In this document: positions 5,350-62,964 of the stretch, piece by piece
Layout of the letters: each line of letters begins with the position of its first letter
How positions within the stretch are numbered: the first letter of the stretch is position 1
Assembly: GCA_040753495.1 (NCBI GenBank)
Contig: JBFMEF010000048.1
Location: forward strand, 1,594 to 65,593
From: Candidatus Zixiibacteriota bacterium
Lineage (GTDB): Bacteria; Zixibacteria; MSB-5A5; GN15; PGXB01
Direction of reading: 5' to 3'
Length of the DNA: 64,000 nucleotides
Position numbers and translations under genes: made by a program
Notes under the pieces: model-generated
Seen by the model: the letters and a program-made list of their open reading frames with translations, nothing else
Told to the model about the DNA's origin: nothing
Database searches by the model: none

Positions 5350-6498
5350 CTATATTACATTGGTCTCTTCGTGGACCAACCCTTTGGAAAATCTGTGCGG
5401 CGACAGGGGAGAGATATCGATAGAGGGATTCTTGCCGCTCAAAATTTCCGCCGTAACGATTCCGGCGGCCGGCGCATGCATTAACCCATGCCCCGAGAAT
5501 CCGGTGACCAAGAAGATACCTTCAATCTCTTCCGCATATCCGATTATGGCATGATGGTCCGGTGTCGTTTCATACAATCCGGCCCAGGCTTTGGAGACTT
5601 CGGCCGTCTCCAGGCGCGGCACCCGCTCCAGCGCTTTCATCAGAATGGTATCGGTATATTCCGGGTCCACCGAGATATCGAATGACGGCGGCACCGACTT
5701 ATCCGCCCAGCCGAGCAGAAGTCCCGGTGACTCTTTATGGAAATACAGTCCCGCTTTGACATCGACCACCATCGGAAAAGTCGGCGGTATAAAGTCAAGC
5801 GCCCCGGTAGTGACAATCTGTCTCCGAATCGGCTCCACCGGAATCTTGATTCCGGCCATTTCACCTATCAGTTTTGCCTGAGGTCCAGCCGCATTCACCA
5901 CCAGCGGTGTCGCAATTTCGCCATTATTTGTCATCACGCCGGCAACTTTTCCTCCGCTGACCCTAATGCCGGTCACTTCGGTCTCGATATTGATCTCAAC
6001 CTGCAGTCTCCGGGCGCCGGTGGCATACCCCTGTATCAGGTCGCTGGGGTCAGCCAGTCCATCATTTTTGCAAAAGGTTGCTTTGATTATATCATCAGTT
6101 CTGACTTCGGGGGCAATTTTGTTGATTTCCGATGGCTCAATCATCTGCACCGGCAGCCCCAGAGAGCGCTGCAACTCCATCGCCTTGCTGAACTGCGCCA
6201 GTTCCTTCTCGTCCGACAACAGAAACATATATCCGACCTGGTCAAATAAGGCATGATACCCGACCTCATCCTCGAAATTCGCCAGAATCTTCTCGGAAAG
6301 CATTGACATTTCAATGTTTACTCTGGTTGTGAATTGGGCGCGAATACCGCCGGCGCATTTGCTGGTCGCTCCGGCTCCCAGGAAAAGCTCCTTCTCCAAA
6401 ACTACAATCTTCCCAAATTTCCGTCGTGCCAGCTCATATGCCGTCGCCAGACCAATAATCCCGCCTCCAACTATGACAACATCTGCGCTCTTAGTCAT
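5350..6498 (-). CDS. FAD-dependent oxidoreductase, DAO family (sarcosine oxidase beta / glycine-D-amino-acid oxidase-like)
   Basis: 382-aa ORF with the N-terminal Rossmann motif DVVIVGGGIIGLATAYELA. Length and pattern fit DAO-family flavoenzymes. Confidence 0.85.
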   Translation of the reverse strand: MTKSADVVIVGGGIIGLATAYELARRKFGKIVVLEKELFLGAGATSKCAGGIRAQFTTRVNIEMSMLSEKILANFEDEVGYHALFDQVGYMFLLSDEKELAQFSKAMELQRSLGLPVQMIEPSEINKIAPEVRTDDIIKATFCKNDGLADPSDLIQGYATGARRLQVEINIETEVTGIRVSGGKVAGVMTNNGEIATPLVVNAAGPQAKLIGEMAGIKIPVEPIRRQIVTTGALDFIPPTFPMVVDVKAGLYFHKESPGLLLGWADKSVPPSFDISVDPEYTDTILMKALERVPRLETAEVSKAWAGLYETTPDHHAIIGYAEEIEGIFLVTGFSGHGLMHAPAAGIVTAEILSGKNPSIDISPLSPHRFSKGLVHEETNVI

Positions 6499-6861: not shown

Positions 6862-6976
6862 ATTAATAAATGAGGCGTTCTCAGATAGTCCCTTAAGAGG
6901 AATATTCGCAATTTTTAAACAAGAGAAGCCCGGTTTAGCCGGGAACATTAACCTCAACTTCGAAGGAGGTGGATTG

Positions 6977-7048
6977 ATGTACACACTCACCATCGAGAGA
7001 CTTGAGGAGAAAATCGCCCCCGTAGGTCTAAGCCTTGGCGGGCAATAA
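6977..7048 (+). CDS. candidate 23-aa microprotein MYTLTIERLEEKIAPVGLSLGGQ
   Basis: The ATG is preceded by GAAGGAGGTGG with a spacing of about 7 nt, one of the strongest SD sequences in the window. A promoter lies upstream and an intrinsic terminator 20 nt downstream. It is too short for the ORF track. Confidence 0.35.
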   Translation: MYTLTIERLEEKIAPVGLSLGGQ

Positions 7049-7069
7049 GCTCCTTTGAAAGTTGATGGC

Positions 7070-7103
7070 GGGGGCAGGGCTAACGGCCTGCCCCCATCTT
7101 TTT
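7070..7103 (+). terminator. rho-independent terminator of the small transcript, overlapping the 3' end of the convergent kinase gene
   Basis: A 9-bp stem (gggggcagg / cctgccccc) with an 8-nt loop, followed by atcttttt. The loop contains the TAG stop (7080-7082, minus strand) of the Ser/Thr kinase. Confidence 0.6.
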
Positions 7104-10100
7104 GCCCAGGAATCGATTCAGATTCTTTATCTCAGCTGCAAGATAATTTATTTTTCCTGCCTCCAGATATCGTGCCCGCAAGTTCTCGTCTTCGATGCTT
7201 TCGGCCATCGTCTTTATGAACTTGATTGCCTTGCGATAATATTCATATGCGCTTTCATAAGAGCCGGATAGTGCGCTGATTCGTCCCAGCCCGATAAGGC
7301 ATTCAGTCGTTTCCGGAATTAAGCCTATCCTTTTCGCCTGGCTGGCTCCTTGAGTCAAGCAGCCCTCTGCTTCAGCGATTTTCCCGATTTCCAGAAACCC
7401 TTTGCCGAGGTCTCGAAAATATCCGGCGGCTTCGATGTCAATATGTTTCTCATCTGACAAGAATCGTAAACCGGAAAGAACGCTTACCGCCTCATCCGGT
7501 CTGCCGGATTCCAGCAAAAGGTGCCCCTTTCTCAACTGAACCAATTGGAGGTCTCGCGCCACTTTGTTTGAAATGGCAAGTTTCTCCGCCTGTTCCATCA
7601 GTGTCATATCTTGTTTCAAGACCGCCCGTAGAGTTAGGATAGATGCCGCCGCCCGTTTGTCATTAATGGACTCGGCGGCTCTTTCGGCCTCCGACAAGAT
7701 CTTCAGCGCTCCCTCATGGTCATTGATGCACCCGTGAAGTTCCGCCAGCGCCAACTGGTACAGTGTCTGGTCAAGTTTATTGCCCAGTAGCGCCGTTCCC
7801 GTTATCGCCTTAAGAAGATTTTCCTGCCCCTTACCATATTGCCCCATTCTCCATTGTATTATCCCAACGAATCCGGCAAACATGCTGGAATGATTTTGAT
7901 CATTCAGTTCTTCAGAGAGCGCCGCTCCTTCGGCAAGATAGCGCAGAGCATCGCGAAGTCGTCCTCCTCTTATCATTACCTGTATCAGATTCTCATAGTT
8001 GTAAAGAAGTTCTCTTCTATTACCAATCCTCTGGTTAATTTTCAGCGACTCCGAGAGGCTGTCAATCGCCATTGCCGTTTCACCCATTTCATTATGCACA
8101 AAACCGAGATTGTTATGCACCCGGGCAATTTCTACCATATTGCCGCATTCTTCGTTCATGAGAAGCGCCGCGTTGAGGATTGTCACCATTCGGCGCAGAC
8201 GCCCCCTCGAAAAATAGGTGACGGCAATGTTATTCAAAGTTGAAGCGATATCTTTTTTGGCTCCTAACTTTTTCTGAATGTGCAGCGCCATCCGGAAAGT
8301 TTTCAGCGCCTCGTCAAATCGGTTGCTGACACAATGAATATTGCCCCGATTATTTATCGTATGCGACAACTCCAAATGGTCCCCCAGCGCCGAATAAATC
8401 TCTTCCGCTTTCCTCAGCGCCTCAATCCCTGATTCAAAATCCTGCTTCATCCGATAGAGATCGCCCAGGTCCTTAAAGGTCTCGGCGAGAAGTCTATCCG
8501 GGGGCTTATTCTGATACAGAGCGATTATCCTCTTATAGCAATCTTCCGCCGCCGGTAGCTCTCCCATCCCCTTCAGGGCATCGGCTTTTTTCATTAATAG
8601 CGGTGCGAGTCTTGTTTCATCATCTCCATTTGACGCCAGCGCCTCCAGAGCGCTCAATAACGCCACCGCTTCGGAATTCTCATTGCGGTCTATCCTGATA
8701 TCCGCCGCCTCCATCACCGCGGCATAAGCGCCTTCAAAATCGCCGGTCTGAAGATACAGTTCCGCCCCCATCTCAATATCCTTATATGACTCGATCGCTC
8801 TTCGCGCCAGGGACGTCGATAATCTTCGCAAAGTGGCGGCCGATATCCTCTGCCGCAGACAATATAAGACTGGACGGGTGTATATTTCACGCTCTGCTGC
8901 CTCTGGCTCTAATCCCAGACACCGCGCTCGTTCTATATCGCCGACAACCGCCATCTTCATCGCCATTCTCTTCTGATTGAAAGAAAGTCTTTTTATCTCG
9001 CATTCCACGGCGCGCCGCAATCTCCTCGGGAAGATTACTTTGTCGCTTGCATCCGATGCCGATATTAGAGCCCCGTCTTTCCATTGAAATACGCCCCTTG
9101 TGAAATTGCACTCCAGAAGACTTCTCAAACAATGGCGCTTAGCTCCGGCGCCGTCATACAACCGGTTCCTTATACCGGCCGAGAATCGGACAAACTCTTT
9201 TTCCAGGAATGCCTGATTGTCAAGTCTATCAAACGCTTGCATCAGATATTTGGGCCTGATGACTCGCTCGAAAGGAAAATCGGAGCCGGCCGCTTTTAAC
9301 CGCCGGCAAAGTTCAAAGCCGTCCTGAGGCCTTTTCTCCGGCAGTTTATCCAGCATTTGCGCCACGATTTCCGAAAGAGATTCCGGTGTATCGGCGCGAA
9401 CTTTTGAGAGACGCGGCGGTTCCGTTTCCTGAATGGCGGCATTGGTCCTGACCGGGTCCGAGTCATCCGCGAGGAAGGGATGTTTTCCTGACGCCATCAT
9501 ATAGGCGACTATACCGAGGGCAAAGATATCGGAGCGATGCTCCAGCGTTCCGCCGCGGATTGTTTCCGGAGCCATATAGCCGACCGTTCCCACCCCCAGC
9601 CGGGCGCCGCTATCTTCCCCCATCTTTTTCGCCAATGAAAAATCGGAAATCTTGGTAAAAAGTAATCCGTTCCTCCATTCCGAGGAGGTGTCGCCATTAA
9701 CAAATATATTCTGTGGTTTGAGATCTCCGTGCGACAATCCTGCCGAATAAAGGTAATAAAGTGAAATGCTGATTGAGGAAAGAAGCCGCAGTAACGCCTG
9801 CGGCTCCTCGATGCGTCCGATACTCTCCAGCGACTTGCCGGGGCAATACTCCATCTCCAGAAAGGGGAGAGTCGGGGAATCGATTAATCTCCTGAGGCGC
9901 ACCACTCCCGGGAAGCGCCATCCCCCTATCAAATCGAACTCACGGCTTATCAGAGTTCGAAATGTGGCAAGGTCGCCCGCGCTTCGGCGGAGTGGCATCT
10001 TTAGCGCGGAGTAAGTCCTGTCCTTCTTGTTCTGCGCCAGGAATACCTCCGCCGTCCCTCCTTGACCGAGAGAGCGGATTAACTGGTATTCCTCTCCGAT

Positions 10101-10115
10101 TGACGAGGCATCCAT
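7080..10115 (-). CDS. Ser/Thr protein kinase with long C-terminal TPR array
   Basis: 1011 aa. Hanks kinase motifs are present: GQGGTAEV (G-loop), ALK (Lys), HGDLKPQNIF (catalytic loop), DFS and GTVGYMAPE. The C-terminal ~550 aa consist of repeated TPR-like helices. Confidence 0.9.
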   Translation of the reverse strand: MDASSIGEEYQLIRSLGQGGTAEVFLAQNKKDRTYSALKMPLRRSAGDLATFRTLISREFDLIGGWRFPGVVRLRRLIDSPTLPFLEMEYCPGKSLESIGRIEEPQALLRLLSSISISLYYLYSAGLSHGDLKPQNIFVNGDTSSEWRNGLLFTKISDFSLAKKMGEDSGARLGVGTVGYMAPETIRGGTLEHRSDIFALGIVAYMMASGKHPFLADDSDPVRTNAAIQETEPPRLSKVRADTPESLSEIVAQMLDKLPEKRPQDGFELCRRLKAAGSDFPFERVIRPKYLMQAFDRLDNQAFLEKEFVRFSAGIRNRLYDGAGAKRHCLRSLLECNFTRGVFQWKDGALISASDASDKVIFPRRLRRAVECEIKRLSFNQKRMAMKMAVVGDIERARCLGLEPEAAEREIYTRPVLYCLRQRISAATLRRLSTSLARRAIESYKDIEMGAELYLQTGDFEGAYAAVMEAADIRIDRNENSEAVALLSALEALASNGDDETRLAPLLMKKADALKGMGELPAAEDCYKRIIALYQNKPPDRLLAETFKDLGDLYRMKQDFESGIEALRKAEEIYSALGDHLELSHTINNRGNIHCVSNRFDEALKTFRMALHIQKKLGAKKDIASTLNNIAVTYFSRGRLRRMVTILNAALLMNEECGNMVEIARVHNNLGFVHNEMGETAMAIDSLSESLKINQRIGNRRELLYNYENLIQVMIRGGRLRDALRYLAEGAALSEELNDQNHSSMFAGFVGIIQWRMGQYGKGQENLLKAITGTALLGNKLDQTLYQLALAELHGCINDHEGALKILSEAERAAESINDKRAAASILTLRAVLKQDMTLMEQAEKLAISNKVARDLQLVQLRKGHLLLESGRPDEAVSVLSGLRFLSDEKHIDIEAAGYFRDLGKGFLEIGKIAEAEGCLTQGASQAKRIGLIPETTECLIGLGRISALSGSYESAYEYYRKAIKFIKTMAESIEDENLRARYLEAGKINYLAAEIKNLNRFLGKKMGAGR

Positions 10116-10119: not shown

Positions 10120-11937
10120 TTATTTTTTTGAAACGTGCTCCAAAGGCAAGCTGATTATGAATGTGGTACCTTCATTCTGTTTGGAAACCACCGCTATTTC
10201 GCCGCCATGATTTTTGATAATTTTCTTGCAATTAGCCAGTCCCAGACCATGGCCGCTTTCTTTGGTGGTATAATGAGGCACAAAAATGCGCGACAGCGCC
10301 TCCTCCGGTATGCCGCAACCGTTGTCGGCAACCGATATCTTTATTTGCGCCCGGGGTTCGTCAAAGGCCGCCTGAATTTCTATCTTGCGGGTGAAATCAC
10401 GATTCCCGCTTGCCTCTTCATCTTTCCCCCTTTGTTCCAGGGCATCCGCCGCGTTATTGAGAAGATTCATCAGAACCTGCTGTATCTGCCCGACATCGAT
10501 CTGCACCGACGGCAGGACCGCTCCCAGGTCGACCGAAAATACAATCTTCTTAAAACGGTTCTGCGCTTTGAGAGAGAATAACAGGTCTTCGATGAGATGC
10601 TTGATATCGTACGATACCACCTCGGTATCCATCTTGGAAAAATCCATCAGGCCATCGGTGAACCGTTTCATTTTCGATATACTCTCAATTATCTGCTTGG
10701 AATTATAAGAAGCTTTCTCCGCCTGCCCTCTCTGAAGATTCAGCGAAAGCAATTCCGCATTATTGGCGATTATCGCCAGATAATTATTTAATTCATGGCC
10801 TATTGAGGCCGCCATTTCTCCCCGCGCCACCAGTTTCTCGGAGAGAATCACATATTTTTCCATAATCACCTTCTCGGTGATATCCTCAATAATGAGTATC
10901 AGGCCATCATGCCCGTACGGCAGTTTCCTGATAGGGGAGAGCTTGATGGAAAAAACTTTCTCATCGTAGCCGGTATTATGAAAATAGCGCGAATCCTCCA
11001 GCGGCTGACGTGTGCTGAGCGCCATATCAATCATCTGACGCCATTTCCCCCGCTCACTTTCGGGAATCAATTCAAAGAAGGTGGTCGAAGTCTCATTCGG
11101 AGTGAAGAGACGGACTTTGTCTTTGTCTTTATCAAAGGTCGCCAGGGCGGCGTCATTAATGGAAACCAGATGATAATCGGTATCAATTACAACTATGCCA
11201 ACCGGCGAATTATTGATGACTTTTTCGTTGTACTGCTTGAGGTCGAGAAGCCGGTCATAGAGGCTGGCGTTATGTATGGCATGCGCTGCCTGCTGCGCCA
11301 GAAGTTCAAACAGGAAAAGGTCCGATTTGAGAAACAGTTTCGCCTGAGACGAATTATCCAGATAGATTATCCCGATGACCCGATTGTTAATCTTGAGCGG
11401 CACGCACATGATGGAGCGCAAATGCAGCTCCAGTACCGACTTCTGATTGGCGTACCTCTGGTCGGCCTGGGCATCCGAGGTGTAAATCGATTTTCCGCTC
11501 GCCGCCACCTGGTTGGCAATCGAATTGGAAATCCGGAAATCCTCCTCCATCAGAGATTCTTTGCAGAGATTGAAGGCCGTCTTGAACTGCAGCTCCCCAT
11601 TGTCATCCAGGAGCATTATAAAGCCGCGCTCGGCTGAGAGAAGTTCAATCGCTTTCTGCATCACCATCTGCAAAACATCCTCAAGCACCAAAGAGGAATT
11701 GACAGCCAGGGATACCTCCAGGACTGCCCTCAGGTCCTCGAGTCTGGTGGTGGTCGCATTCTCGCTTGCTTCTATTCGGGGATTCTCACCGGCAATCTCA
11801 TCCAGAGCCGCCTCCATCTGCGCCAGAACGCTTCCGGTGTCACCCAGACGAAGTCTCTCGGTCTTCTGCCCAGATGGTTTCGGCTTACTTACAAAAATGC
11901 CGGTGCCAGATTCTGTCTCATCCTTGTAGTCAGGCAT
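10120..11937 (-). CDS. cytoplasmic GAF-PAS sensor histidine kinase
   Basis: 605 aa with a GAF-like then a PAS-like region. It has the H-box SIGHELNNYL, N-box NLLNNAADA, G1 DNGCGIP and G2 GHGLGLA. No TM segments. There is a 4-nt gap to the downstream kinase gene. Confidence 0.9.
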   Translation of the reverse strand: MPDYKDETESGTGIFVSKPKPSGQKTERLRLGDTGSVLAQMEAALDEIAGENPRIEASENATTTRLEDLRAVLEVSLAVNSSLVLEDVLQMVMQKAIELLSAERGFIMLLDDNGELQFKTAFNLCKESLMEEDFRISNSIANQVAASGKSIYTSDAQADQRYANQKSVLELHLRSIMCVPLKINNRVIGIIYLDNSSQAKLFLKSDLFLFELLAQQAAHAIHNASLYDRLLDLKQYNEKVINNSPVGIVVIDTDYHLVSINDAALATFDKDKDKVRLFTPNETSTTFFELIPESERGKWRQMIDMALSTRQPLEDSRYFHNTGYDEKVFSIKLSPIRKLPYGHDGLILIIEDITEKVIMEKYVILSEKLVARGEMAASIGHELNNYLAIIANNAELLSLNLQRGQAEKASYNSKQIIESISKMKRFTDGLMDFSKMDTEVVSYDIKHLIEDLLFSLKAQNRFKKIVFSVDLGAVLPSVQIDVGQIQQVLMNLLNNAADALEQRGKDEEASGNRDFTRKIEIQAAFDEPRAQIKISVADNGCGIPEEALSRIFVPHYTTKESGHGLGLANCKKIIKNHGGEIAVVSKQNEGTTFIISLPLEHVSKK

Positions 11938-16743: not shown

Positions 16744-16764
16744 TTCAGTTCAATTCCCGAATAC

Positions 16765-17190: not shown

Positions 17191-17269
17191 TTTATCTTCC
17201 ATTTTAATAAAAAAGGCAGGTTGAAGACCCAACCCACCCTGCTATCTTAGGAATCACCCGGGCAATTCC

Positions 17270-21208: not shown

Positions 21209-21934
21209 ATGGCACAAGCTGACTTCATACCGGCGGGAAGAACCTCCCGCATCGTCAAAGGCGCGGTCGAACTGCAGATTCAGACCGAGTATGCATATCG
21301 ACCAAACCCCCGTTTAACGACGTCTATTTTTTCCAAGGGTCAGGTTCTTCATAAAATCGAAAAGGACCTGGCGGCGCCAATTGCCTCAATGGAAGAAAAA
21401 CTGAAAGTCGAGGGGCTTCTGCGCAAACAGCATATGGAAGTGATGGAGATTCTCAATGACGGTCAGTTTGTCAATCGCATCATGCAGCAGATTTCCCCGT
21501 CGACACCGCCGTCCGGCGTCAAGATTGCCCGCGCCCCCGAGCCGCCCCGAAAAACCGCTCCTGAGGATACGCCGACCGCGGTCGAAACAACGCCGCTTCG
21601 CCCCAAGGTATCGCTCCTCAACCGCTTCTCAGAAATTGAAGGAGTGGAGAAAATCTATCGCATTGACCCGGATGGCAATTTTGATTCTGATGCCGTCTCT
21701 TCCGACCTCAAAAAAAAATATGCTCCGATTTTCAAGGGGCTGCGCGAATTGCTCGATATTTTCCGCGACCTGCCCGGCGGACGCAAAGAGGAAGGCGTTT
21801 ATGTCATCGAGCATAACCGACTTTATCTGATTTCTTCCGGATTCGAATTTTACTTTGTGCTTACCCGCCGGCAGAAAGCAGCCAAAAACTACGAAGCCGA
21901 ATTTCATCGCCTTATCTTGGAACAATTCAGTTAA
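21209..21934 (+). CDS. hypothetical protein (two globular parts joined by a Pro/Thr-rich linker)
   Basis: 241-aa ORF co-oriented with nrdJ. No family is recognised. It contains an A9 homopolymer at 21710-21718 (codons KKK). Confidence 0.6.
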   Translation: MAQADFIPAGRTSRIVKGAVELQIQTEYAYRPNPRLTTSIFSKGQVLHKIEKDLAAPIASMEEKLKVEGLLRKQHMEVMEILNDGQFVNRIMQQISPSTPPSGVKIARAPEPPRKTAPEDTPTAVETTPLRPKVSLLNRFSEIEGVEKIYRIDPDGNFDSDAVSSDLKKKYAPIFKGLRELLDIFRDLPGGRKEEGVYVIEHNRLYLISSGFEFYFVLTRRQKAAKNYEAEFHRLILEQFS

Positions 21935-26614: not shown

Positions 26615-28351
26615 ATGCCGCAAGGATATTTCGCTTTCGTCTTGCATACTCATCTCCCTTATGTGCTTGCCCATGGCCGTTGGCCGCACGGGATGGACTG
26701 GCTGTCCGAAGCGGCTGCGGAAACTTATCTGCCGCTAATTCGAATTATCAATGAACTGGTTCAGGAGGGATATAAACCGAAACTGACGATAGATATTTCA
26801 CCGGTGCTGACCGAGCAGTTAGCCGATGATTCCTTCAAGACCGAGTTTGAGACTTATCTGGTTCAGAAAATCGACGCCGCCGGAAAAGATGCCGCGGAAT
26901 TCTTCAAATATTCCCAGCCGAATATGCTGGAGAACGCCCATTTCTGGGAAAAATTCTATAAAGACACCCTGGAACAGTTCAATTCCATCAATCGCGATAT
27001 TATCGGTCAGCTGAGACGATTGCAGGAGCGGGGATTTTTGGAGATAATGACCTGCGGCGCGACCCATGGCTATTTCCCTCTTCTCTCGCGCGATGAAACC
27101 GTGCAGGCGCAGGTGAAACTGGCGGTGAAGAACTATGAAAAGCATTTCGGGCGAAGACCGCGCGGGATATGGCTGCCCGAGTGCGCCTATCGTCCCCGCT
27201 ACAAATGGGCGCCGCCGGTGCCGATTGACGGCTCCCAGGAGGCATACCAGCGAAAAGGTGTGGATGAATTCCTCTCCGAGAACGGGATTGATTTCTTCAT
27301 TGTCGATTCAGCGTTGCTGAAAGGGGGAAAATCGATTGGTGTCTACCTTGACCGGTTCGAGGCGTTAAAACGTCTCTGGGGACAATTCGAAGCCCAATAT
27401 CGCCCGCGCGAAGAGCAGAAAGATAAAACCCCCCGCGAGGTCTATCTGGTCAGCTCCTCACCCGAAGGAAAAAAGCCGACTTCGATTTTCACCCGCGACC
27501 CGGAGACAGGGCTTCTGGTCTGGTCCGGCGAACATGGATATCCCGGCGATGGAAATTATCTCGATTTCCATAAGAAACGTTTTCCGGGAGGGCATCGTTA
27601 CTGGGCGGTAACCTCATCGAAGTCCGACTTAGCCGACAAGGTGGAGTATTTTCGCAAGACTGCCCTGGCCCGCATTGGGGAGAATTCGGAACATTTTGTC
27701 GGAAAGATTCATGATATCGTTACCGGATATTACGAACAGTCGCATCGGGCGGGGATTTTGACAGCGCCATATGATGCCGAACTTTTCGGGCACTGGTGGT
27801 TCGAAGGTCCGCTGTTTTTGAAGGAAGTGCTTCGGAAAATCTGCCTTGACCCCGAAGTAGATTTGACCTTTCTGGCGGAACATCTCGATAGAGTGCAGCC
27901 GACCGAAGTAATTTCAATACCGGAGGGAAGCTGGGGCGAAGGGGGGAACCATTATATCTGGCTCAACGCTGAGAATGAATGGACCTGGAAACATATCTAT
28001 GAGGCGGAGAAAAAACTCTGCGCCCTGGCGCGCCATTATGAGGCAAATAAAAGCACGATTTCGGATGAATTGACCGAACTTATCAAGCAGCTGGCGCGGG
28101 AGTTGATGCTGATGGCCGCTTCCGACTGGCAGTTCCTGATTTCAACCTGGTCAGCCCGCGATTATGCCGAACTGCGGTTGTCGGAACATTGGTCGATATT
28201 CAAGCGCCTCGCAGAGATGGCCGACAGGATGATTGCCGGGGAGAGTCCGTCCCTCGGCGATTGGGAGTTCTACTCCGACTGCAAGAAACGGGACGCCCTC
28301 TTTCCGGAAATCGAACTGGAGTGGTTCGCGCGGGTAGAATACCCGGCTTAA
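26615..28351 (+). CDS. GH57-family 1,4-alpha-glucan branching enzyme
   Basis: 578 aa. The N-terminal YFAFVLHTHLPYV, GIWLPECAY and DAELFGHWWFEG motifs, plus the C-terminal helical DUF1957-like region, are typical of GH57 branching enzymes. Confidence 0.85.
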   Translation: MPQGYFAFVLHTHLPYVLAHGRWPHGMDWLSEAAAETYLPLIRIINELVQEGYKPKLTIDISPVLTEQLADDSFKTEFETYLVQKIDAAGKDAAEFFKYSQPNMLENAHFWEKFYKDTLEQFNSINRDIIGQLRRLQERGFLEIMTCGATHGYFPLLSRDETVQAQVKLAVKNYEKHFGRRPRGIWLPECAYRPRYKWAPPVPIDGSQEAYQRKGVDEFLSENGIDFFIVDSALLKGGKSIGVYLDRFEALKRLWGQFEAQYRPREEQKDKTPREVYLVSSSPEGKKPTSIFTRDPETGLLVWSGEHGYPGDGNYLDFHKKRFPGGHRYWAVTSSKSDLADKVEYFRKTALARIGENSEHFVGKIHDIVTGYYEQSHRAGILTAPYDAELFGHWWFEGPLFLKEVLRKICLDPEVDLTFLAEHLDRVQPTEVISIPEGSWGEGGNHYIWLNAENEWTWKHIYEAEKKLCALARHYEANKSTISDELTELIKQLARELMLMAASDWQFLISTWSARDYAELRLSEHWSIFKRLAEMADRMIAGESPSLGDWEFYSDCKKRDALFPEIELEWFARVEYPA

Positions 28352-28458: not shown

Positions 28459-28713
28459 TTGCCAAAATATATTTATGATGCCGATTTTACTGCCGTGAAA
28501 CTGCTTAAGTCAAAAGAAAAAAGCAAATGCCCTTATTGTATGGAAGAGATTGCGCCGGGGGCGATAGTCTGCAAGCACTGCCATACCATTCTAAAAAAGC
28601 CGGAGAAGAAAAAGTCGCGACCCTGGTGGGTTGGAAATTATATGCTCGGCATTTACACCGGCATCGCTTTCATGGGGCTAATGATCTATCTTTATCAGCG
28701 GATATTCGGCTGA
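28459..28713 (+). CDS. tail-anchored zinc-ribbon microprotein (84 aa)
   Basis: It contains CPYC-x14-CKHC (zinc ribbon), a Lys-rich linker (KKPEKKKSRP) and a C-terminal TM helix (WWVGNYMLGIYTGIAFMGLMIYLY). The only canonical in-frame start that includes both Cys pairs is the TTG at 28459, which has a weak SD, so the start is uncertain. Confidence 0.5.
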   Translation: MPKYIYDADFTAVKLLKSKEKSKCPYCMEEIAPGAIVCKHCHTILKKPEKKKSRPWWVGNYMLGIYTGIAFMGLMIYLYQRIFG

Positions 28714-28785
28714 GACCGGCCATTTATTCCTTTGACGGATTCGCCCTCTCTACTTATTTTATATCAACAAATCGCCTGAGGCTTT

Positions 28786-31116
28786 ATGGACAAACCGCCT
28801 AAAATCAGGGACGATCTGGTTATCCGGGAAGTGACCGCTAAAGACGGCTCCAAGAACTTTGTAATCAAAGACCCGATAACCGGTCTCTTCTTTCAGGTGC
28901 GGGAGCCGGAATACTTCATAATTACAAGTTTTGATGGCGCCAAGGGGTCTGCTGATATCGCGGTCGAATTCACCAAGCGGTTCAATCTGGAAATTGATGC
29001 CGCTTCTATTGAGGGCTTTGCGGCGCACCTGCAAAAGCTCTGCTTTCTTGACAATGACCTGACCCGGCTGGAACTGCTGCGACGGCAGCGGGAAGCGACC
29101 AGAGAACCAAAACAATCCCTTCTCGGCAGACTGCTGTTTATAAAACTGAAAGCCATCGACCCGGGCCGCCTGTTTGACCGGCTGATAAATCGTGTGCGGC
29201 TATTCTTCACGCCGCAATTTGTCGCTCTGGCGGCTTTTCTGATTCTCCTGGCTGTACTCGTATCATTGAATAACAGCCGCGATATACTCCGGGGAATGGG
29301 GGAGATTCTCTCGGTTCAGGGGATAATCATCTTATATCTTTCAATGCTCATGGTGGCGGTATTGCATGAATTCGCGCACGGGCTGACCTGCAAATTTTAC
29401 GGCGGCGAGGTGCGCGATATCGGCTTCCTACTGCTTTATTTTCAGCCCGCCTTCTACTGCAATGTCAGCGACGCCTGGCTCTTTACCGAAAAGAGAAAAC
29501 GTCTCTGGGTCTCCTTCTCGGGCGGGTTCTTTCAAATTTTCATCTGGTCGCTGTCGGTGCTGGTCTGGAGAGTTACCGCGACCGATACGGCGATAAATCT
29601 GGTGGCGCTGGCTGTGATGGCTTTCTCGGGAGTTGCCACCCTGTTTAATTTCAATCCTCTTCTTAAATATGACGGCTATTATATCCTCAGCGATTATCTG
29701 GAGATTCCCAATCTTCGCCAGAAAGCCGGAAGATACTGGAAAGGGCTGCTTAGACGGCTCCTGCTGGGACAATGGCGTGATGACTCCGGGTACAGCCGCC
29801 GCGAGAAAAGAATCTATTTTTATTATGGAATTTTATCTTTTATTTATGTAGTCTTTATTCTGGGATACTTCTTTATGATGCTGGCGCAGTTCCTGGTATC
29901 CCGATTGGGCGGCACCGGCTTCTTGATATTTGCCGCCATTATGGTCTTTCTATTCAGGAATCTGATTATGGACGCAGTCAAAGAGACAGGTCGAGCCATA
30001 AAAGCGGAAGGAAGTCTTCTCCGTCGCTGGCCCGGGCGGATAACAGCGGCGATTATTCTGGTCGGTTTGATATTTCTGGTCGCGTTCGTGAAAGTCGAAC
30101 TGCGGGTGAAAGGGGAACTGGAAATCGGCCCGCGCCAGATTTTAACGCTGAAATACAACAGCGCCGGATATGCGGAACTTTTGCAGTACGACAAATCGAG
30201 CCGTTCCACCGGACAGAAGCGGGAAGTGAGCACCTTTTCGAGCGACTATACTACCACTCGATTGCTGCCGCTGGTCAGCATCGGCGACAGCATCGTGGCG
30301 GGACAGGTAATCGCCCGCCTGATTAATACCGAGACTTCGCACCTGATAAATGAATATACGGCGCGTCTGCGTGAGGCGGAGGAGCAACTGGCGATTCTTC
30401 AGCAGGGAGCGCGACCACAGGAAATAGAAGAGGCGCGCAATACCGTCCGGGAAATGCAGGCAAAATTGGACCAGGCGAGTTTGAATCTGACCCGGATTAA
30501 TGAAATGTATGCGAAAAATCTCGTAGCGAAACAGGCCTGGGAGGATGCCCGGGCTGATTCCCTGGTCTGGGACGCGCGCCTCAAAGGGGCGCAGAACCGT
30601 CTCTATTTATTAAAAGCCGGGACCCGCCCGGAAGAGATTAAAGCGAAAGAAGCCGAAATCGACCGTCTTAAAAGCCAGATAGACTTCCATTCCCGTCAAC
30701 AGGATGCCTACGAGATTAAGGCGACCATTTCGGGCATGGTGCTTCATCTCGATACCGGGGAGACCGTGTGCGAAATCGCCAACCTGGACACGGTGGAAGC
30801 GATGATTACTCTGTCGGAAAAAGAACTGGCCGATATCGGCCTGGGGCAAAAAGTGAAATTCAAAGTGCGCGGATATCCCGAGTTATCTTTCTACGGTGAT
30901 GTCTATCGGATTGACAATAAGATTGTGGAGAATGTCAATGGGGAGCGAGTCTTTCAGACCGCCTGTCTGGTGCCTAATGACGCTCATCTTCTCCGACCGG
31001 GAATGACCGGTGTCGCCAATGTGTACTGCGGCAAGAGAAAAGTCGGTCATCATATATACCGCAAATTTTTCCGCACCATCCGCACCGAGTTCTGGGACTG
31101 GTTTGACTGGTTATAA
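28786..31116 (+). CDS. fusion protein: PqqD-like N-terminal domain / M50 site-2 metalloprotease / HlyD-family membrane-fusion (periplasmic adaptor) domain
   Basis: 776 aa. Residues ~30-95 show a PqqD-like pattern (FFQVREPEYFIITSFDGAKGSADIAVEFTKRFNLEIDAASIEGFAAHLQKL). HEFAHGL (HExxH) and NFNPLLKYDGYY (NxxPxxxxDG) sit in a multi-TM core, which identifies M50. Residues ~450-776 have a coiled coil plus a beta-barrel typical of HlyD adaptors. Confidence 0.85.
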   Translation: MDKPPKIRDDLVIREVTAKDGSKNFVIKDPITGLFFQVREPEYFIITSFDGAKGSADIAVEFTKRFNLEIDAASIEGFAAHLQKLCFLDNDLTRLELLRRQREATREPKQSLLGRLLFIKLKAIDPGRLFDRLINRVRLFFTPQFVALAAFLILLAVLVSLNNSRDILRGMGEILSVQGIIILYLSMLMVAVLHEFAHGLTCKFYGGEVRDIGFLLLYFQPAFYCNVSDAWLFTEKRKRLWVSFSGGFFQIFIWSLSVLVWRVTATDTAINLVALAVMAFSGVATLFNFNPLLKYDGYYILSDYLEIPNLRQKAGRYWKGLLRRLLLGQWRDDSGYSRREKRIYFYYGILSFIYVVFILGYFFMMLAQFLVSRLGGTGFLIFAAIMVFLFRNLIMDAVKETGRAIKAEGSLLRRWPGRITAAIILVGLIFLVAFVKVELRVKGELEIGPRQILTLKYNSAGYAELLQYDKSSRSTGQKREVSTFSSDYTTTRLLPLVSIGDSIVAGQVIARLINTETSHLINEYTARLREAEEQLAILQQGARPQEIEEARNTVREMQAKLDQASLNLTRINEMYAKNLVAKQAWEDARADSLVWDARLKGAQNRLYLLKAGTRPEEIKAKEAEIDRLKSQIDFHSRQQDAYEIKATISGMVLHLDTGETVCEIANLDTVEAMITLSEKELADIGLGQKVKFKVRGYPELSFYGDVYRIDNKIVENVNGERVFQTACLVPNDAHLLRPGMTGVANVYCGKRKVGHHIYRKFFRTIRTEFWDWFDWL

Positions 31117-31268
31117 GCCCGGTAAGCCCCGGCTAAAATATCCTCTTGATTAACAAGTCGCCAATCCAGGTCGCGTTGGAAAAACGGGACGAAACCGGGC
31201 GGGAGCGGCTCTATGACCGCGTTATTTTCTTTTCTACTATCATTGTATCTCCTATATTGGCGTCAGGT

Positions 31269-31883
31269 ATGAACAGCAGCCTGATTTCAGAGCTCTCCGC
31301 CAAAGGGTACTGGCCCGCGCTCGCAATGGAATATTTTCTGGAGAAGAAATTCTCCCGGGCAATCGAGCTTTGCCGCCTGAGACTCTCGGAATGTCCGGAA
31401 CTGATTTCGGGGCGAACAATCCTTGCCCGGGCGTTGTTTCATACCGGGCAGATGGAATTGTCGCAGCAGGAGTTTTACCGAGTACTGGAGAAAGACCCGG
31501 ACAATCTCGTGGCGCTGAAATATCTGGGAGATATCAAATTCTATTCCGGCGACAGCGCCAGCGCCTTTTCATATTATGAGCGATTTCTCCTGACGGCACC
31601 CGCTTCCGAAGGACTGGCGTCGTCGATAGCCGACCGACCTTTTACGGCAACCAAAATTGTAATGCTCCGTAAGGGAGAAGATAAGAGAGATACCGCCGAG
31701 GAAAAATTGCGCGATATACCGTTCCGAACCGAAACTCTGGGAAACCTCCTGATGGCGCAAGGGTACTATCGCCTGGCTCTGAAAGTGTTCAATGAACTGG
31801 CGGAAGCCGGTATCAACCCCCGAATTTCCGAGAAGATTGAAATAATAGAAGCATCATTAAGCAAGGACAAGAAAAATGCATAA
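31269..31883 (+). CDS. TPR-repeat protein
   Basis: TPR-like helices run from GYWPALAMEYFLEKKFSRAIELC onward. The ATG at 31269 is chosen. The ORF track starts at a TTG at 31146, which would add a hydrophobic N-terminal segment, so the start is unresolved. Confidence 0.6.
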   Translation: MNSSLISELSAKGYWPALAMEYFLEKKFSRAIELCRLRLSECPELISGRTILARALFHTGQMELSQQEFYRVLEKDPDNLVALKYLGDIKFYSGDSASAFSYYERFLLTAPASEGLASSIADRPFTATKIVMLRKGEDKRDTAEEKLRDIPFRTETLGNLLMAQGYYRLALKVFNELAEAGINPRISEKIEIIEASLSKDKKNA

Positions 31884-40410: not shown

Positions 40411-41997
40411 ATGATTAAATTCTCTGACGTCACTTATCGTTACCCGCAGGGGATTCGGGGTGTTGATGGGCTAAGCCTGGAAATAGGCTCCGGCGAGAAA
40501 TGCGCCATTATCGGCAACAACGGCTCCGGCAAGACAACATTTGCTTTGCTTGCAAAAGGATTGCTTAAAGCGGAGTCGGGACAGATCGAAATCGACGATC
40601 TGAATCCGGCTGCGATGGCCGACAGCAAGGCTCTCAAAAGAAAAATCGGACTGGTATTTCAAAATCCCGATAATCAGTTAGTGGCATCAACGGTGGAAAG
40701 GGAAATCGCTTTTACCCTCGAAAATCTGAATATGCCCCGAGTCGAAATGAAGGAGCGGGTAGAGAATATGCTCCGTCTGTTCTATTTGGATGACAAACGA
40801 GAACGGCTGACATCACAACTTTCCGGCGGAGAAAAACAGAAACTGGCGCTGGCATCAGTAATGGCGGCATCGCCGGAGATTCTAATACTGGACGAGCCGG
40901 GGTCGTTTCTGGATGAAGCCGGAAAACGGCTCCTGCGTGAGGTTTTAGACCGGTTGCTTTCGACTCATCCCCTTCTGACCGTTGTGCGAATAACGCAATA
41001 CTCTTACATAGCAGAACAGTATCCGCGTCTAATCGTACTGAGCAAAGGAAAGGTTCTTCTCTCGGGAACTCCGGACGAGACATTTTCCAATCCGGCGCTC
41101 TGCCGGGAAGCCGGAATTGAGCCGCCGCTTCGTCACCGGCTGCGCCGTGGCCCGCTCGAATCGGCAAAGAAAATAGTCCCGACTACCGCGGGAAACCTAC
41201 CGGTGCATCAGATAAAAGTCCAAACCCTCGAATTCGCCTATCAAAATGGCTCTGCCGGCGCTCGATTATTTTGCGGCGAATCATTGGAGATTGACAACCG
41301 TTCAGTTTATGGGCTGGTGGGTCCCTCGGGAAGCGGAAAAAGCACGCTGATACAACTAATGGCGAAACTCCTGAAGCCGGACCGCGGCCAAATCCTGTAT
41401 ATTGATTTCGATTCGGACAATCCCCGTCTGGCGGTCTCGTTTCAGCATCCCGAGCGGCAGTTTTTTCTTGAAACCGTGGAGAAGGAGATTCGCTTCGGCG
41501 CGGAAAATTTCGGCATCGCTGACATTGACCGGATATCGCAGGACTGTTACCGGATGGTGGGACTGGACCGGGCGGAATTTTTCAATCGCGACCCTTTCAG
41601 TCTTTCCGGCGGCGAAAAACGCCGGCTGGCATTTGCCGCCATACTCTCCATGAAACCGTCATACATCTTTTTTGACGAACCGACCAGCGGTTTGGATGCC
41701 GAAGGGATTGGGCATTTTCGGTGCCTGGTGAAATCGCTTCAAGAACAGGGGGTCGGAGTCCTGATAATTTCGCATTATGGGAATATTATCTTTGACTTAT
41801 GCCAGCGAATAATCACCCTCAATCAAGGGAAAATCGAAAGCATTTTGAGCCGGGAGGAGTTTTTTTGCAGCGCCGCTTACCGCAGTTTTCTTTCGGAGCC
41901 GGAAGTCATTTCTTTTCAACTTCAGGAATGGGGGGAAATCCGGCGCTTCGATGAGGCGGGACTTATTGAGGAATTGGGGTATAAAATAGCCGAATGA
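40411..41997 (+). CDS. ECF/CbiO-type ABC transporter ATPase with duplicated ATPase domains
   Basis: 528 aa with two Walker A motifs (GNNGSGKTT, GPSGSGKST), two signature motifs (LSGGEKQKL, LSGGEKRRL) and two Walker B motifs (ILILDEP, YIFFDEP). Confidence 0.85.
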   Translation: MIKFSDVTYRYPQGIRGVDGLSLEIGSGEKCAIIGNNGSGKTTFALLAKGLLKAESGQIEIDDLNPAAMADSKALKRKIGLVFQNPDNQLVASTVEREIAFTLENLNMPRVEMKERVENMLRLFYLDDKRERLTSQLSGGEKQKLALASVMAASPEILILDEPGSFLDEAGKRLLREVLDRLLSTHPLLTVVRITQYSYIAEQYPRLIVLSKGKVLLSGTPDETFSNPALCREAGIEPPLRHRLRRGPLESAKKIVPTTAGNLPVHQIKVQTLEFAYQNGSAGARLFCGESLEIDNRSVYGLVGPSGSGKSTLIQLMAKLLKPDRGQILYIDFDSDNPRLAVSFQHPERQFFLETVEKEIRFGAENFGIADIDRISQDCYRMVGLDRAEFFNRDPFSLSGGEKRRLAFAAILSMKPSYIFFDEPTSGLDAEGIGHFRCLVKSLQEQGVGVLIISHYGNIIFDLCQRIITLNQGKIESILSREEFFCSAAYRSFLSEPEVISFQLQEWGEIRRFDEAGLIEELGYKIAE

Positions 41998-58054: not shown

Positions 58055-58057
58055 GAA

Positions 58058-62951: not shown

Positions 62952-62964
62952 GCAGGGAGGTTTT

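Follow-up and report, generated by a model that had tools for sequence, protein, structure and literature searches.

A fusion of RRE, site-2-protease-like and HlyD-adaptor parts in Zixibacteria, a candidate for leader-dependent peptide maturation and export

Three-part fusion gene and its surroundings

The central part of the window (the whole 64-kb stretch of Zixibacteria DNA analysed here) carries the following features, listed with coordinates, strand and basis:

28459..28713, +, zinc-ribbon microprotein with a C-terminal TM helix, 84 aa (ORF; clade-restricted upstream neighbour)
28786..31116, +, RRE / S2P-like protease / HlyD-adaptor fusion, 776 aa (ORF, NCBIfam and Pfam matches, AF2)
28786..29085, +, RRE / PqqD-like leader-binding domain, cytoplasmic, aa 1-100 (AF2, Foldseek, PF05402 in homologues)
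29212..30096, +, seven-TM S2P-like core, aa 143-437 (hydropathy, positive-inside, NF041824, NF058609)
29365..29379, +, HEFAH motif, aa 194-198
29653..29676, +, NPLLKYDG motif, aa 290-297
30097..31041, +, HlyD/MacA-type adaptor, periplasmic, aa 438-752 (Pfam, phmmer, Foldseek)
31042..31113, +, conserved C-terminal helix RKFFRTIRTEFWDWFDWL (helix 753-775 in the AF2 model)
31213..31272, +, 19-codon ORF MTALFSFLLSLYLLYWRQV (its stop overlaps the true TPR start)
31269..31883, +, TPR protein, 204 aa, cytoplasmic, no TM segment (ATG at 31269 projected from orthologues)

All ORFs described in the original prediction are present, and its three-domain reading of the 776-aa product, the RRE/PqqD-like fold included, is upheld by domain matches. 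The gene, which begins 72 nt 3' of the zinc-ribbon ORF, encodes a genuine three-part membrane protein composed of a cytoplasmic RRE domain, a 7-TM S2P-like core and a periplasmic HlyD/MacA-like adaptor (AF2 model, pLDDT 75.7). The N-domain is modelled in beta3-alpha3 order (pLDDT 87), and structure comparison returned the lasso B1 RRE fold: the six top PDB matches by Foldseek, TbiB1 (5v1u, 5v1v) and 6jx3 among them, are leader-bound lasso-peptide B1 RRE proteins (probability 0.99-1.00, TM 0.53-0.68). PF05402 (PqqD) ranks first among Pfam families in nine of ten homologous N-domains (best E 1.5e-4); it is not the top family for the window copy's own N-domain.

Hydropathy and positive-inside analysis give seven TM helices with Lys/Arg-rich loops facing the RRE side, and the catalytic motifs lie where TM2 and TM4 reach the cytoplasmic side. 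Residues H194, E195, H198, N290, P291, D296 and G297 are unchanged in all 14 homologues compared, and the HExxH and Asp motifs are invariant across family clusters sharing only 32-38% identity. The daptide_HExxH family NF041824 matches residues 33-395 (E 1.1e-64) with 219 bits against a curated cut-off of 300, and NF058609 (YydH/LiaK) matches aa 135-310 (E 3e-15). Matches to Pfam M50, M50B and DUF3267 (E 0.028 for the last) are sub-threshold only, PF02163 scores 15.8 against a curated threshold of 27.2, and a profile of the TM core found no relative among PDB sequences, solved S2P structures included.

The last TM helix of the fusion anchors the adaptor, which is built of a barrel-sandwich, a long alpha-hairpin and a beta-barrel. 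PF16576 (HlyD_D23) scores 49.7 bits (cut-off 30) and PF13437 27.4 bits, likewise above cut-off; phmmer matches the adaptor half to MacA 9qgy (E 2.3e-5), and the top PDB matches of the C-terminal half by Foldseek are MacA and EmrA (E 4e-17 to 2e-15). The adaptor consensus of the family has R-x3-L-x6-S at the hairpin tip, and the C-terminal helix has the signature R-x-x-R-V-E-F-W-S-W-W. This tail is kept in most relatives of 700-950 aa, with R759, R766, E768, W770 and W772 invariant in 14 homologues.

The fusion family is large and uncharacterised, with 1,972 homologues at E<=1e-5 (8,000 candidates scored) and 7,785 clusters at E<=1e-10 for the RRE-protease core family; its nearest curated relative is the daptide leader peptidase. 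In agreement with the original prediction, Pfam annotation of the predicted genes of the 64-kb window contains no pump, TolC-like channel, radical-SAM/YcaO/LanM-type enzyme or sigma factor, five window proteins being without a Pfam match (140-865, 1329-2456, 2468-3280, 21209-21934 and 60140-60526). The window holds no linked gene for an energy source or outer-membrane channel, and no pump was found in sampled Zixibacteria loci.

Leader-peptide genes linked to the fusion family

The fusion family is genetically linked to tiny leader-peptide genes. These ORFs have in common the leader Y-x-L-x-V-E-x-L-E-x-R/K-I-A-P followed by a short core, and an iterated profile of the leader gave 41 matches in 36 loci (43,628 six-frame segments searched). 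All but one (L086, divergent) share the strand of the fusion gene, and no more than two, the window copy and a weak match in L041, fall outside the interval of -600 to +1,124 nt around it. Peptide genes adjoin the fusion in 30 group-2 loci, in four distant loci (by profile) and in 11 metagenome loci. Their frequency differs between Zixibacteria clusters, with an adjacent peptide in 22 of 26 loci of one and in only 3 of 27 of another large one; group-1 loci have no leader peptide gene within 8 kb of the fusion. The peptide also lies upstream of the fusion in distant, non-Zixibacteria-type loci (L042, L052, L066, L068, L084, L087 and L088). Long, variable cores of low complexity are seen in other phyla, and L057 carries tandem multi-copy peptide genes.

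The view that no precursor was present is refuted by this family, one member of which lies in the window and had been missed:

5350..6498, -, FAD-dependent (DAO family) oxidoreductase (synteny anchor beside the peptide gene)
6965..6969, +, Shine-Dalgarno GGAGG, 7 nt 5' of the peptide ATG (sequence)
6977..7048, +, 23-aa precursor-like peptide gene, MYTLTIERLEEKIAPVGLSLGGQ (leader profile match, synteny, codon changes)
7070..7105, +, intrinsic-terminator-like hairpin with T-run, 3' of the peptide gene (sequence, folding)
7080..10115, -, Ser/Thr kinase-TPR protein, 1011 aa, no TM segment (Pkinase 3.5e-39 plus TPR; convergent with the peptide gene)
10120..11937, -, GAF/PAS sensor histidine kinase, 605 aa, no TM segment (conserved neighbour of the peptide gene)

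Codon changes (seven synonymous, one non-synonymous against L098), the conserved Shine-Dalgarno region (AAGGAGGTG kept in nine of nine homologous loci) and terminator-like hairpins whose stem sequences differ (present in eight of the nine) show that this mini-gene is real. The window's own hairpin has a 9-bp stem with eight G-C pairs and a fold energy of -24.9 kcal/mol. The core is conserved along with the leader. We infer that the 6977-7048 product is the likely substrate of the fusion, with a 15-aa leader MYTLTIERLEEKIAP, an 8-aa core VGLSLGGQ and a predicted cleavage site.

Because the peptide gene sits 21.7 kb upstream of the fusion gene, the link between the two is one of family-wide association and not of adjacency. 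The block of DAO oxidoreductase, peptide, Ser/Thr kinase-TPR and histidine kinase genes (5.3-12 kb) is syntenic with ~25 loci that have the fusion between the oxidoreductase and peptide genes, its position in group-2 loci; the same block houses the fusion gene in other Zixibacteria. The Ser/Thr kinase-TPR gene adjoins the peptide gene in ~25 genome loci, ~17 metagenome loci and L169-L171. The prediction that block sites devoid of the fusion keep the peptide gene was borne out in metagenome loci and on group-1 contigs. A LEEKIAP-type peptide gene occupies such a site in six window-like metagenome loci (five distinct, L096 and L097 being duplicates), and the remote gene is also retained on three contigs that carry a group-1 fusion (DYGG01000002.1 and contigs of 413,932 bp and 535,366 bp).

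Loss of the fusion-peptide adjacency in group 1 could also mean that an unlinked family member processes the 6977-7048 peptide, the group-1 fusion having neofunctionalised towards another substrate or the zinc-ribbon protein. The group-1 fusion shares no more than 32-36% identity with other clusters and lies among unrelated housekeeping genes, and the visible genome amounts to 64 kb. We nevertheless consider such a paralogue unlikely: among the best 80 GTDB loci, four chromosomes that are complete or nearly so included, there is no case of two fusion copies from one assembly; the ancestral site, both here and in nine related loci (eight distinct), has no fusion but retains a peptide gene subject to purifying selection; and the LEEKIAP leader variant follows the group-1 lineage.

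Immediate neighbours of the fusion gene

The 84-aa microprotein combines CPYC..CKHC, a Lys-rich linker and a single C-terminal hydrophobic span. Its Pfam zinc-ribbon matches are sub-threshold, an identical protein is named 'zinc ribbon domain-containing protein' by NCBI, and only two proteins were found in an index of 5.8 billion. The original prediction had placed the substrate among the flanking small genes, which the comparison of loci does not support. The zinc-ribbon gene adjoins the fusion in 12 of 18 group-1 (close orthologue) loci (45-92% identity, with or without a GH57 insertion upstream), and in these 12 it is probably co-transcribed with the fusion. It is missing wherever the upstream block differs; L003, L005, L006, L007 and L014 lack it, as do all 66 group-2 (more distant Zixibacteria) loci and the distant loci; the microprotein is a lineage-specific accessory at most. 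The 19-codon ORF, judged by comparison of orthologues, is probably not a gene: a partial version occurs only in the 90%-identical L004, 14 other orthologue loci compared lack it, and the fusion-TPR spacing of 53-107 nt in most orthologues contains no such ORF. Nor does the TPR gene behave as a linked neighbour of the fusion. It overlaps PepP (31876) in the window and in L001-L003 and remains with PepP where insertions part it from the fusion; it belongs to the PepP operon, which it opens, and is no specific partner of the fusion.

In the earlier model, the zinc-ribbon microprotein (anti-sigma-like) or the 19-aa product would be the target of regulated intramembrane proteolysis by the fusion, which would relay a signal; we rate this somewhat less likely still than a paralogue. 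The position of the microprotein gene on the same strand and its N-in single-TM topology would suit a substrate of a site-2 protease, and S2P-clan proteases can cut membrane-integrated single-TM precursors, as in the TMcin system (PMC13252029). However, the gene is clade-restricted and the 19-codon ORF is not conserved; sigma factor, site-1 protease and PDZ domain are all absent; known RREs take short linear leaders and not folded zinc ribbons; and the whole family is tied to another class of small ORFs.

Proposed mechanism and related systems

On balance, we slightly favour the reading that this diderm bacterium (Zixibacteria) uses the 776-aa protein to mature and export peptides in a leader-dependent manner, with the 6977-7048 product as the substrate. 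The RRE would hold the 15-residue leader in the cytoplasm, and the protease would cut after ...IAP, by analogy with daptide MpaA (Pro at position -1), freeing the octapeptide VGLSLGGQ. The fused adaptor, probably oligomeric and docking to an unlinked TolC-like channel, would then take the peptide through the periplasm and the outer membrane. Candidate export partners lie beside two members of the family: P0213, a distant homologue, has a pair of TolC-like OEP genes and another adaptor as neighbours, and in L085 a second adaptor gene immediately precedes the fusion. Since tailoring enzymes are absent from the linked genes, the short peptide may be left unmodified.

The recognise-cleave-relay logic proposed earlier is supported by homology to RRE-dependent intramembrane RiPP leader peptidases (NF041824, YydH/LiaK). 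Its supposed lack of a known counterpart does not extend to the RRE-M50 part, since MpaP is an RRE fused to a site-2 protease and removes an ELExMEAP-type leader (Ren et al. 2023, PMC10036551); an adaptor-fused RRE-dependent intramembrane RiPP protease, in contrast, was not found described in the searched literature. MpaP/DapP (NF041824) likewise carry an N-terminal RRE on an intramembrane HExxH site-2-type protease, and the leaders end similarly (ELExMEAP versus LEEKIAP, both ...(I/E)-A-P), but they measure ~380 aa and are devoid of the HlyD adaptor found in the 776-aa fusion. Daptide clusters are Gram-positive (Actinomycetota, Bacillota), with MpaB/C/D/M tailoring and Thr-ending precursors, none of which occur in the window. 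EpeP/YydH and LiaK (NF058609) are also intramembrane M50-type RiPP proteases, EpeP being thought both to cleave and to export its own peptide (PMC10885120), and JGI gives relatives of the fusion the YydH-type label 'putative peptide zinc metalloprotease'; EpeP/YydH, however, has no adaptor, and its monoderm host supplies a radical-SAM epimerase and an ABC transporter as partners. TmcP (DUF3267, S2P clan) is a further RiPP leader peptidase working at the membrane, but it is a minimal four-TM protease without RRE or adaptor that acts on a substrate with a TM helix of its own and is encoded together with a dedicated ABC exporter (PMC13252029).

RseP and SpoIVFB share the intramembrane zinc protease core with HExxH and N-x-x-P-x-x-x-x-D-G in TM helices, whereas the fusion lacks PDZ and CBS domains and is not partnered by an anti-sigma factor, a sigma factor or a site-1 protease. 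In type I secretion bacteriocin exporters (peptidase-containing ABC transporter / HlyD / TolC), a protease that recognises and removes an N-terminal leader is likewise joined to an envelope-spanning export apparatus with a HlyD adaptor; there, a C39 cysteine peptidase sits on an ATP-driven ABC exporter with a separate adaptor, while here a zinc S2P-type protease sits on the adaptor with no linked ATPase or motor. MacA and EmrA have the same single TM anchor and adaptor build, but they are stand-alone proteins encoded with an ABC or MFS pump, whereas the window adaptor makes up the C-terminal half of a protease and bears an additional conserved aromatic C-terminal helix.

The peptide might instead stay in the cytoplasm and bind or regulate either the fusion or the kinase-TPR/histidine kinase pair, being sensed by the RRE to gate proteolysis of some other substrate, which we regard as very unlikely. 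TPR domains commonly bind peptides, both kinases beside the peptide gene are without TM segments, and the core is conserved as well as the leader. Against this, the cores in other phyla are cargo-like, the tandem genes of L057 are typical of precursor arrays, and homologous RRE-protease enzymes strip leaders from their ligands (PMC10036551). Least probable of all is an ordinary efflux adaptor, whose HlyD part would serve an unlinked RND or ABC pump with the N-terminal half as a mere membrane anchor: NCBI labels relatives 'efflux RND transporter periplasmic adaptor subunit', the adaptor fold is strong in Foldseek, and one distant homologue has an RND pump gene and OEP genes nearby, but the invariant catalytic motifs, the conserved RRE, the lack of a pump in the 64 kb and in sampled Zixibacteria loci, and the specific link to leader peptides all speak against it.

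If the fusion is indeed a peptide maturation and export protein, the constant position of the peptide gene beside the Ser/Thr kinase-TPR and GAF/PAS histidine kinase genes makes a signalling role for the small peptide possible, which we offer as speculation.

Domain organization and family of the fusion protein

The original prediction read a 776-aa ORF as a PqqD-like recognition domain (RiPP recognition element, RRE), an M50-type site-2 protease (S2P) core and a HlyD-type adaptor joined in one polypeptide. The ORF and its upstream neighbour lie where they had been located:

28459-28713, zinc-ribbon microprotein, 84 aa, with CPYC...CKHC, a Lys-rich linker and one C-terminal hydrophobic span
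28786-31116 (+), 776-aa fusion ORF, starting 72 nt 3' of the 84-aa zinc-ribbon ORF

Taken together, Pfam and NCBIfam matches, AF2 folds, a topology of seven transmembrane (TM) segments and invariant catalytic residues bear out the three-domain description. The C-terminal part (residues 498-740) matched HlyD_D23 (PF16576; 49.7 bits, cut-off 30) and HlyD_3 (PF13437), both above cut-off. When the full-length AF2 model (pLDDT 75.7) was compared with Foldseek, the top structural matches were the MacA and EmrA adaptors (E 4e-17 to 2e-15), and the barrel-sandwich, alpha-hairpin and beta-barrel of the HlyD family follow a TM7 anchor (419-437). The matches listed were all adaptor structures and left the protease core without structural information. 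In the family consensus, the tip of the adaptor hairpin carries an R-x3-L-x6-S motif, whose significance we presume from general knowledge of adaptors. A C-terminal helix (31042-31113, aa 753-776) is not part of classical adaptors and is conserved, with its signature, in the majority of fused relatives from different phyla; it may lie against the membrane or touch the protease core.

For the N-terminal domain, the sequence profile gave chance-level matches only against PDB sequences, so that a comparison of folds was required. A separate AF2 model of residues 1-105 (pLDDT 87) shows the beta-beta-beta-alpha-alpha-alpha order of an RRE, with strands at 12-17, 23-28 and 35-39 and helices at 40-48, 55-66 and 72-84, as in a winged-helix-like fold. 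Its six best Foldseek matches in the PDB are lasso-peptide B1 RRE proteins crystallised with leader peptides (TbiB1 5v1u and 5v1v; 6jx3), with probabilities of 0.99-1.00 and TM scores of 0.53-0.68. The RRE fold was thus recovered as predicted; a PqqD family assignment by Pfam was not, the window's own domain having no PF05402 match. PF05402 is the top Pfam family in 9/10 homologous N-domains, weakly and only at E >= 1.5e-4, and one relative (protein P0014) has a precomputed PF05402 match.

Hydropathy predicts seven TM segments with Lys/Arg-rich loops on the RRE side. In this topology the cytoplasmic face carries the RRE together with the two catalytic motifs, and the adaptor is periplasmic. 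HEFAH (194-198) follows TM2 and NPLLKYDG (290-297) follows TM4, giving the HExxH and the distal Asp-ligand motif (N-x-x-P-x-x-x-x-D-G) of the S2P clan, and seven residues (H194, E195, H198, N290, P291, D296, G297) do not vary among homologues, even at 36% identity. Pfam matches near HEFAH (M50, M50B, DUF3267) were all sub-threshold, with PF02163 at 15.8 bits against 27.2, and a profile of the TM core matched no chain among the PDB sequences, so neither PF02163 nor a solved S2P was recovered. Among NCBIfam models, residues 33-395 match NF041824 ('daptide biosynthesis intramembrane metalloprotease'; 1.1e-64, 218.9 bits, below the 300-bit equivalog cut-off) and residues 135-310 match the YydH/LiaK epipeptide protease model (3e-15).

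The closest proteins come from Zixibacteria MAGs, where they are named 'efflux RND transporter periplasmic adaptor subunit', 'hypothetical protein' or, at JGI, 'putative peptide zinc metalloprotease protein'; the database names of the family are thus misleading, calling its members efflux adaptors or hypothetical proteins. When the RRE-protease core alone (residues 1-420) was searched exhaustively, 11,453 clusters (50% identity) reached E<=1e-3; at E<=1e-10 there were 7,785, and at E<=1e-30 there were 2,133. The best 150 relatives are mostly 700-950 aa long, and most of the long ones end in the tail R-x-x-R-V-E-F-W-S-W-W, which reads RKFFRTIRTEFWDWFDWL in the window protein; members also occur outside Zixibacteria, for example in Acidobacteriota MAGs. 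Judged on these cluster counts, the common long form with its tail and the spread to other phyla, the fusion belongs to a large, coherent, uncharacterised family and is no one-off. Seemingly unfused relatives of ~410 aa are, at least in part, contig-end fragments (e.g. P0139 in locus L088). The RRE-protease half is a described architecture, as in MpaP, an RRE fused to a site-2 protease (PMC10036551), and a description of the HlyD-fused form or of the peptides cognate to it turned up neither in Pfam, NCBIfam and PDB sequences nor in the literature searched.

Immediate neighbours of the fusion gene

The original prediction sought the substrate among the adjacent small genes and the downstream TPR gene. 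To this question we brought 3 + 80 loci (L-numbers below) fetched and analysed by script; with the window included, 18 loci form a group of close orthologues (group 1, 54-90% identity). The downstream ORFs concerned are:

31213-31272, 19-codon ORF, its stop overlapping the ATG of the TPR gene
31269 (true start ATG), TPR gene, 204 aa, overlapping the start of PepP in the window and L001-L003

Group 1 has the downstream order fusion - TPR - PepP - AccB - PilT - AccC - GcvH - GcvP. Because the TPR gene overlaps PepP, and insertions of 527-1,811 nt (L003, L011, L014) all fall between the fusion and TPR genes, it is a member of the PepP operon, and we rejected it as a specific partner. (The TPR proteins near the more distant Zixibacteria fusions, group 2, are the kinase-TPR proteins that adjoin the peptide gene described below.) The 19-codon ORF was likewise discarded as a gene: a partial counterpart exists only in L004 (90% identical), and most orthologues have 53-107 nt of intergenic sequence without such an ORF.

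The zinc-ribbon/TM microprotein is a real conserved gene (45-92% identity), found directly 5' of the fusion in 12/18 group-1 loci. BLAST and a CxxC...CxxC motif scan recovered it neither in L003, L005, L006, L007 and L014, which have a different upstream block, nor in any of the 66 more distant Zixibacteria loci, and a database search with the 84-aa protein returned its own cluster and one relative only, the word index being weak for short proteins. It may be a lineage-specific accessory or regulator. It is retained whether or not a GH57 branching-enzyme gene (26615-28351 in the window) stands further upstream; this gene lies between DUF3467 and the zinc-ribbon gene in the window, L004, L009, L010, L012, L016 and L029, and is absent from L001, L002, L008, L011 and L015. 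At L011 4774-5072 the zinc-ribbon gene is frameshifted, with zinc ribbon and TM helix in separate frames (a pseudogene or an assembly error). Several MAGs in this set (those of L004, L006, L012-L014 and others) are labelled Ignavibacterium or Ignavibacteriaceae and have genes 55-90% identical to the Zixibacteria-like window, so that the labels are probably taxonomic mislabels.

In the 64 kb, otherwise filled with housekeeping genes, we found no sigma factor, PDZ, CBS, pump, TolC-like or tailoring gene, in agreement with what had been noted from the sequence for pump, channel, tailoring and sigma-factor genes. Anti-sigma S2P cascades of regulated intramembrane proteolysis (RIP) combine an anti-sigma substrate with a sigma factor, a site-1 protease and a PDZ or CBS domain; no sigma factor, PDZ or CBS domain was found here and the zinc-ribbon neighbour is not family-wide, and a cascade of the anti-sigma type is improbable. 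Neither the 64 kb nor the sampled Zixibacteria loci yielded an inner-membrane ABC/RND/MFS transporter, and no motor protein is linked to the window's fusion. Outer-membrane channel (OEP) genes adjoin the fusion only in one distant homologue, which has two of them and a second adaptor on its flanks; another distant homologue has a second adaptor directly upstream. The sole ABC ATPase of the window (40411-41997) has two ABC domains, no membrane domain and is of ABC-F type, a soluble factor and no exporter.

Leader-bearing mini-genes and the fusion lineages

Small same-strand ORFs lie just 5' of the fusion in distant members, reading MKHLRLELQKLEERIAPWGGGG... (L087) and MKSKKLKLTVEDLEERIAPSFIF... 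(L088). The six-frame segments of all loci numbered 43,628; searched with a regular expression and then with an iterated HMM, they yielded 41 matches in 36 loci. The L086 match is divergent, and all the others are on the fusion strand. Apart from the window copy and a weak match in L041, all lie -600 to +1,124 nt from the fusion. The leader aligns over 14-17 residues as Y-x-L-x-(V/I/L)-E-x-L-E-x-(R/K)-I-A-P, and the core, mostly 8 residues, reads hydrophobic-G-hydrophobic-S-x-G-G-Q, with peptides ending in GGQ, GGE and similar. The Zixibacteria ORF stands 150-400 nt 3' of the fusion (e.g. MADYKLTVEVLETRIAP-IGLSQGGQ); other lineages have it 5' of the fusion, with longer Gly/Ser/His/Asn-rich cores. 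Gene callers missed these mini-genes (in L084 the opposite strand was called), NCBIfam has no model for them, and no paper on the leader motif was found in the literature searched.

Two loci extend the pattern. In L057 (10468-11511), five tandem leader-peptide genes, MVYELTLEELEARI(S/I)PSKYG(VD/TG), follow one fusion like a precursor array. L086 (3-6053, -) encodes a 2017-aa repetitive acidic protein headed by the same leader (…KADKLEERIAPAMMV…), divergent from its RRE-protease-adaptor gene, which suggests that the leader may also mark large cargo. The Acidobacteria-type loci L084 (5032-5262, 7943-8959) and L087 (889-1113, 4078-5088) have His/Ser/Gly/Lys-rich cores with GGSHH and KSSKSH repeats, which possibly bind metal, and share a conserved downstream protein of ~337 aa without a Pfam match.

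The window has a single match to the leader profile, in a mini-gene absent from the original prediction. It stands within the following block:

5350-6498 (-), DAO, FAD-dependent oxidoreductase, flanking the peptide gene
6977-7048 (+), peptide mini-gene, product MYTLTIERLEEKIAPVGLSLGGQ
7080-10115 (-), Ser/Thr-kinase-TPR protein, flanking the peptide gene
10120-11937 (-), GAF/PAS histidine kinase (HisK)

A GGAGG lies 7 nt 5' of the peptide ATG, and a 9-bp hairpin (8 G-C pairs) with a T-run follows the stop. The Shine-Dalgarno sequence is conserved in 9/9 compared loci, and terminator hairpins still pair, despite differing stem sequences, in 8/9. Such a strong Shine-Dalgarno sequence with a terminator would predict a short and plentiful transcript. 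Compared with L098, the mini-gene differs by 7 synonymous changes and 1 non-synonymous change, and we judge from such comparisons that it evolves as coding sequence. A 17-nt stretch directly after the stop, GCTCCTTTGAAAGTTGA (7049-7065), is near-identical in 8/9 related loci though the later terminator stems differ, and may be a 3' UTR element or binding site. Rfam found no known RNA in the window, and scanning for the sigma-70 consensus revealed no peptide-gene promoter, only a lone TTGACA hexamer (6833-6838). Between the peptide block and the fusion gene lies a partner-switching module (14500-17605, -) that comprises a 747-aa SpoIIE-type phosphatase, a 155-aa RsbW-like HATPase_c_2 kinase and a 111-aa STAS protein; the module also adjoins the block in L169-L171.

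About 25 group-2 loci share this block, with the fusion gene between DAO and peptide; in the window this interval is a 478-nt gap and the sole fusion gene stands at a distance of 21.7 kb. With DAO as anchor, a scan of metagenomes yielded 11 loci ordered kinase-TPR / peptide / fusion / ... / DAO and 6 (5 distinct, L096 and L097 being duplicates) ordered HisK / kinase-TPR / peptide / DAO without a fusion. The DAOs of these 6 are among the closest to the window's (67-74% identity), and all 6 have the leader variant ...LEEKIAP; other variants of the leader are LEARIAP and LETRIAP. On group-1-fusion contigs the peptide was predicted to lie beside kinase-TPR, and it was found there in 3/3 tested, with no fusion within 5 kb: on DYGG01000002.1 (L004, L169) the peptide is identical and lies ~22 kb away from the fusion, a 413,932-bp contig (CVT49_02200, CVT49_02300) has MKLTIEKLEEKIAPAISLGGQ and a 535,366-bp contig has MKLTIVRLEEKIAPLGFSLGGQ.

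Average-linkage clustering separates several Zixibacteria fusion clusters, 32-38% identical to one another. An adjacent peptide occurs in 22/26 loci of one cluster and 3/27 of another. Beside the peptide-less cluster, a search for some other conserved small ORF returned only a thioredoxin-like gene and out-of-frame artefacts. Group 1 has none (0/15 loci, full-length fusion proteins only), and remote peptides were present in the window and all 3 other genomes examined. No assembly appears twice among the 80 best GTDB loci, consistent with one fusion copy per genome. The simplest reading is that, in the window lineage, the fusion was relocated or replaced by a divergent copy and the peptide stayed at the old site with a slightly changed leader. 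The proposed pairing of peptide and fusion in this genome accordingly rests on association, not adjacency.

Proposed mechanism and comparison with known systems

A few RiPP pathways of Gram-positive bacteria (daptides, epipeptides) are known to use RRE-dependent intramembrane proteases. The family leader resembles that of daptides, whose motif ELExMEAP has Pro at -1; MpaB/C/D/M-type genes and Thr-terminated precursors were found neither in the window nor in the sampled loci. With NF041824 (218.9 against 300 bits) and PF02163 both below threshold and no daptide context, the protein should be classed neither as a daptide protease nor as a canonical M50/RIP enzyme. By analogy, it would act in the manner of the RRE-dependent intramembrane leader peptidases of RiPP pathways (MpaP, EpeP), with a MacA-like adaptor attached. 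PCAT/HlyD/TolC bacteriocin exporters follow a parallel logic with different parts.

In the mechanism we propose, the RRE would bind the peptide leader in the cytoplasm, the protease would cut after IAP to release VGLSLGGQ, and the fused adaptor, probably oligomeric, would carry the released peptide to a TolC-like channel whose gene lies elsewhere. EpeP, itself an M50 protease, is thought both to cleave and to export its peptide (PMC10885120); this precedent, the OEP and second-adaptor neighbours of distant homologues and the hairpin-tip motif fit an envelope-spanning assembly. The two cytoplasmic kinases that constantly adjoin the peptide gene suggest, speculatively, a signalling role.

A broader reading, which we regard as improbable in its full extent, is that such RRE-S2P-HlyD fusions form a widespread and hitherto unrecognised envelope-spanning secretion route of diderms. 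The RRE would read an N-terminal leader ...ELE(E/A)(R/K)IAP, the protease would remove it, and the adaptor would pass the product on to a channel in the outer membrane, with no dedicated ABC/RND motor. Cargo would range from unmodified 6-13-residue Zixibacteria peptides (possibly signals read by kinase-TPR/HisK) to His/Gly/Ser-rich peptides and a 2017-aa repetitive protein in other phyla.

The family joins a recognise-and-cleave core, itself comprising thousands of sequence clusters, to a Gram-negative-type periplasmic adaptor, and is paired here with tiny leader-bearing genes, a class not annotated before. This pairing makes the function testable, since it offers a defined candidate substrate of 23 residues together with predictions of the cleavage site and of the octapeptide product, and the leader motif provides a class-independent handle for mining such peptides. 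If the export role is true, a diderm could process small ribosomal peptides and release them with no need of a PCAT-type ABC exporter, and peptide signalling may occur in an uncultured phylum.

Elsewhere, the window encodes a SprA-like protein (1938 aa, a type IX secretion component; 49882-55698), the SelA/SelB selenocysteine machinery (56672-59959) and an NfeD/SPFH pair (61590-63714).
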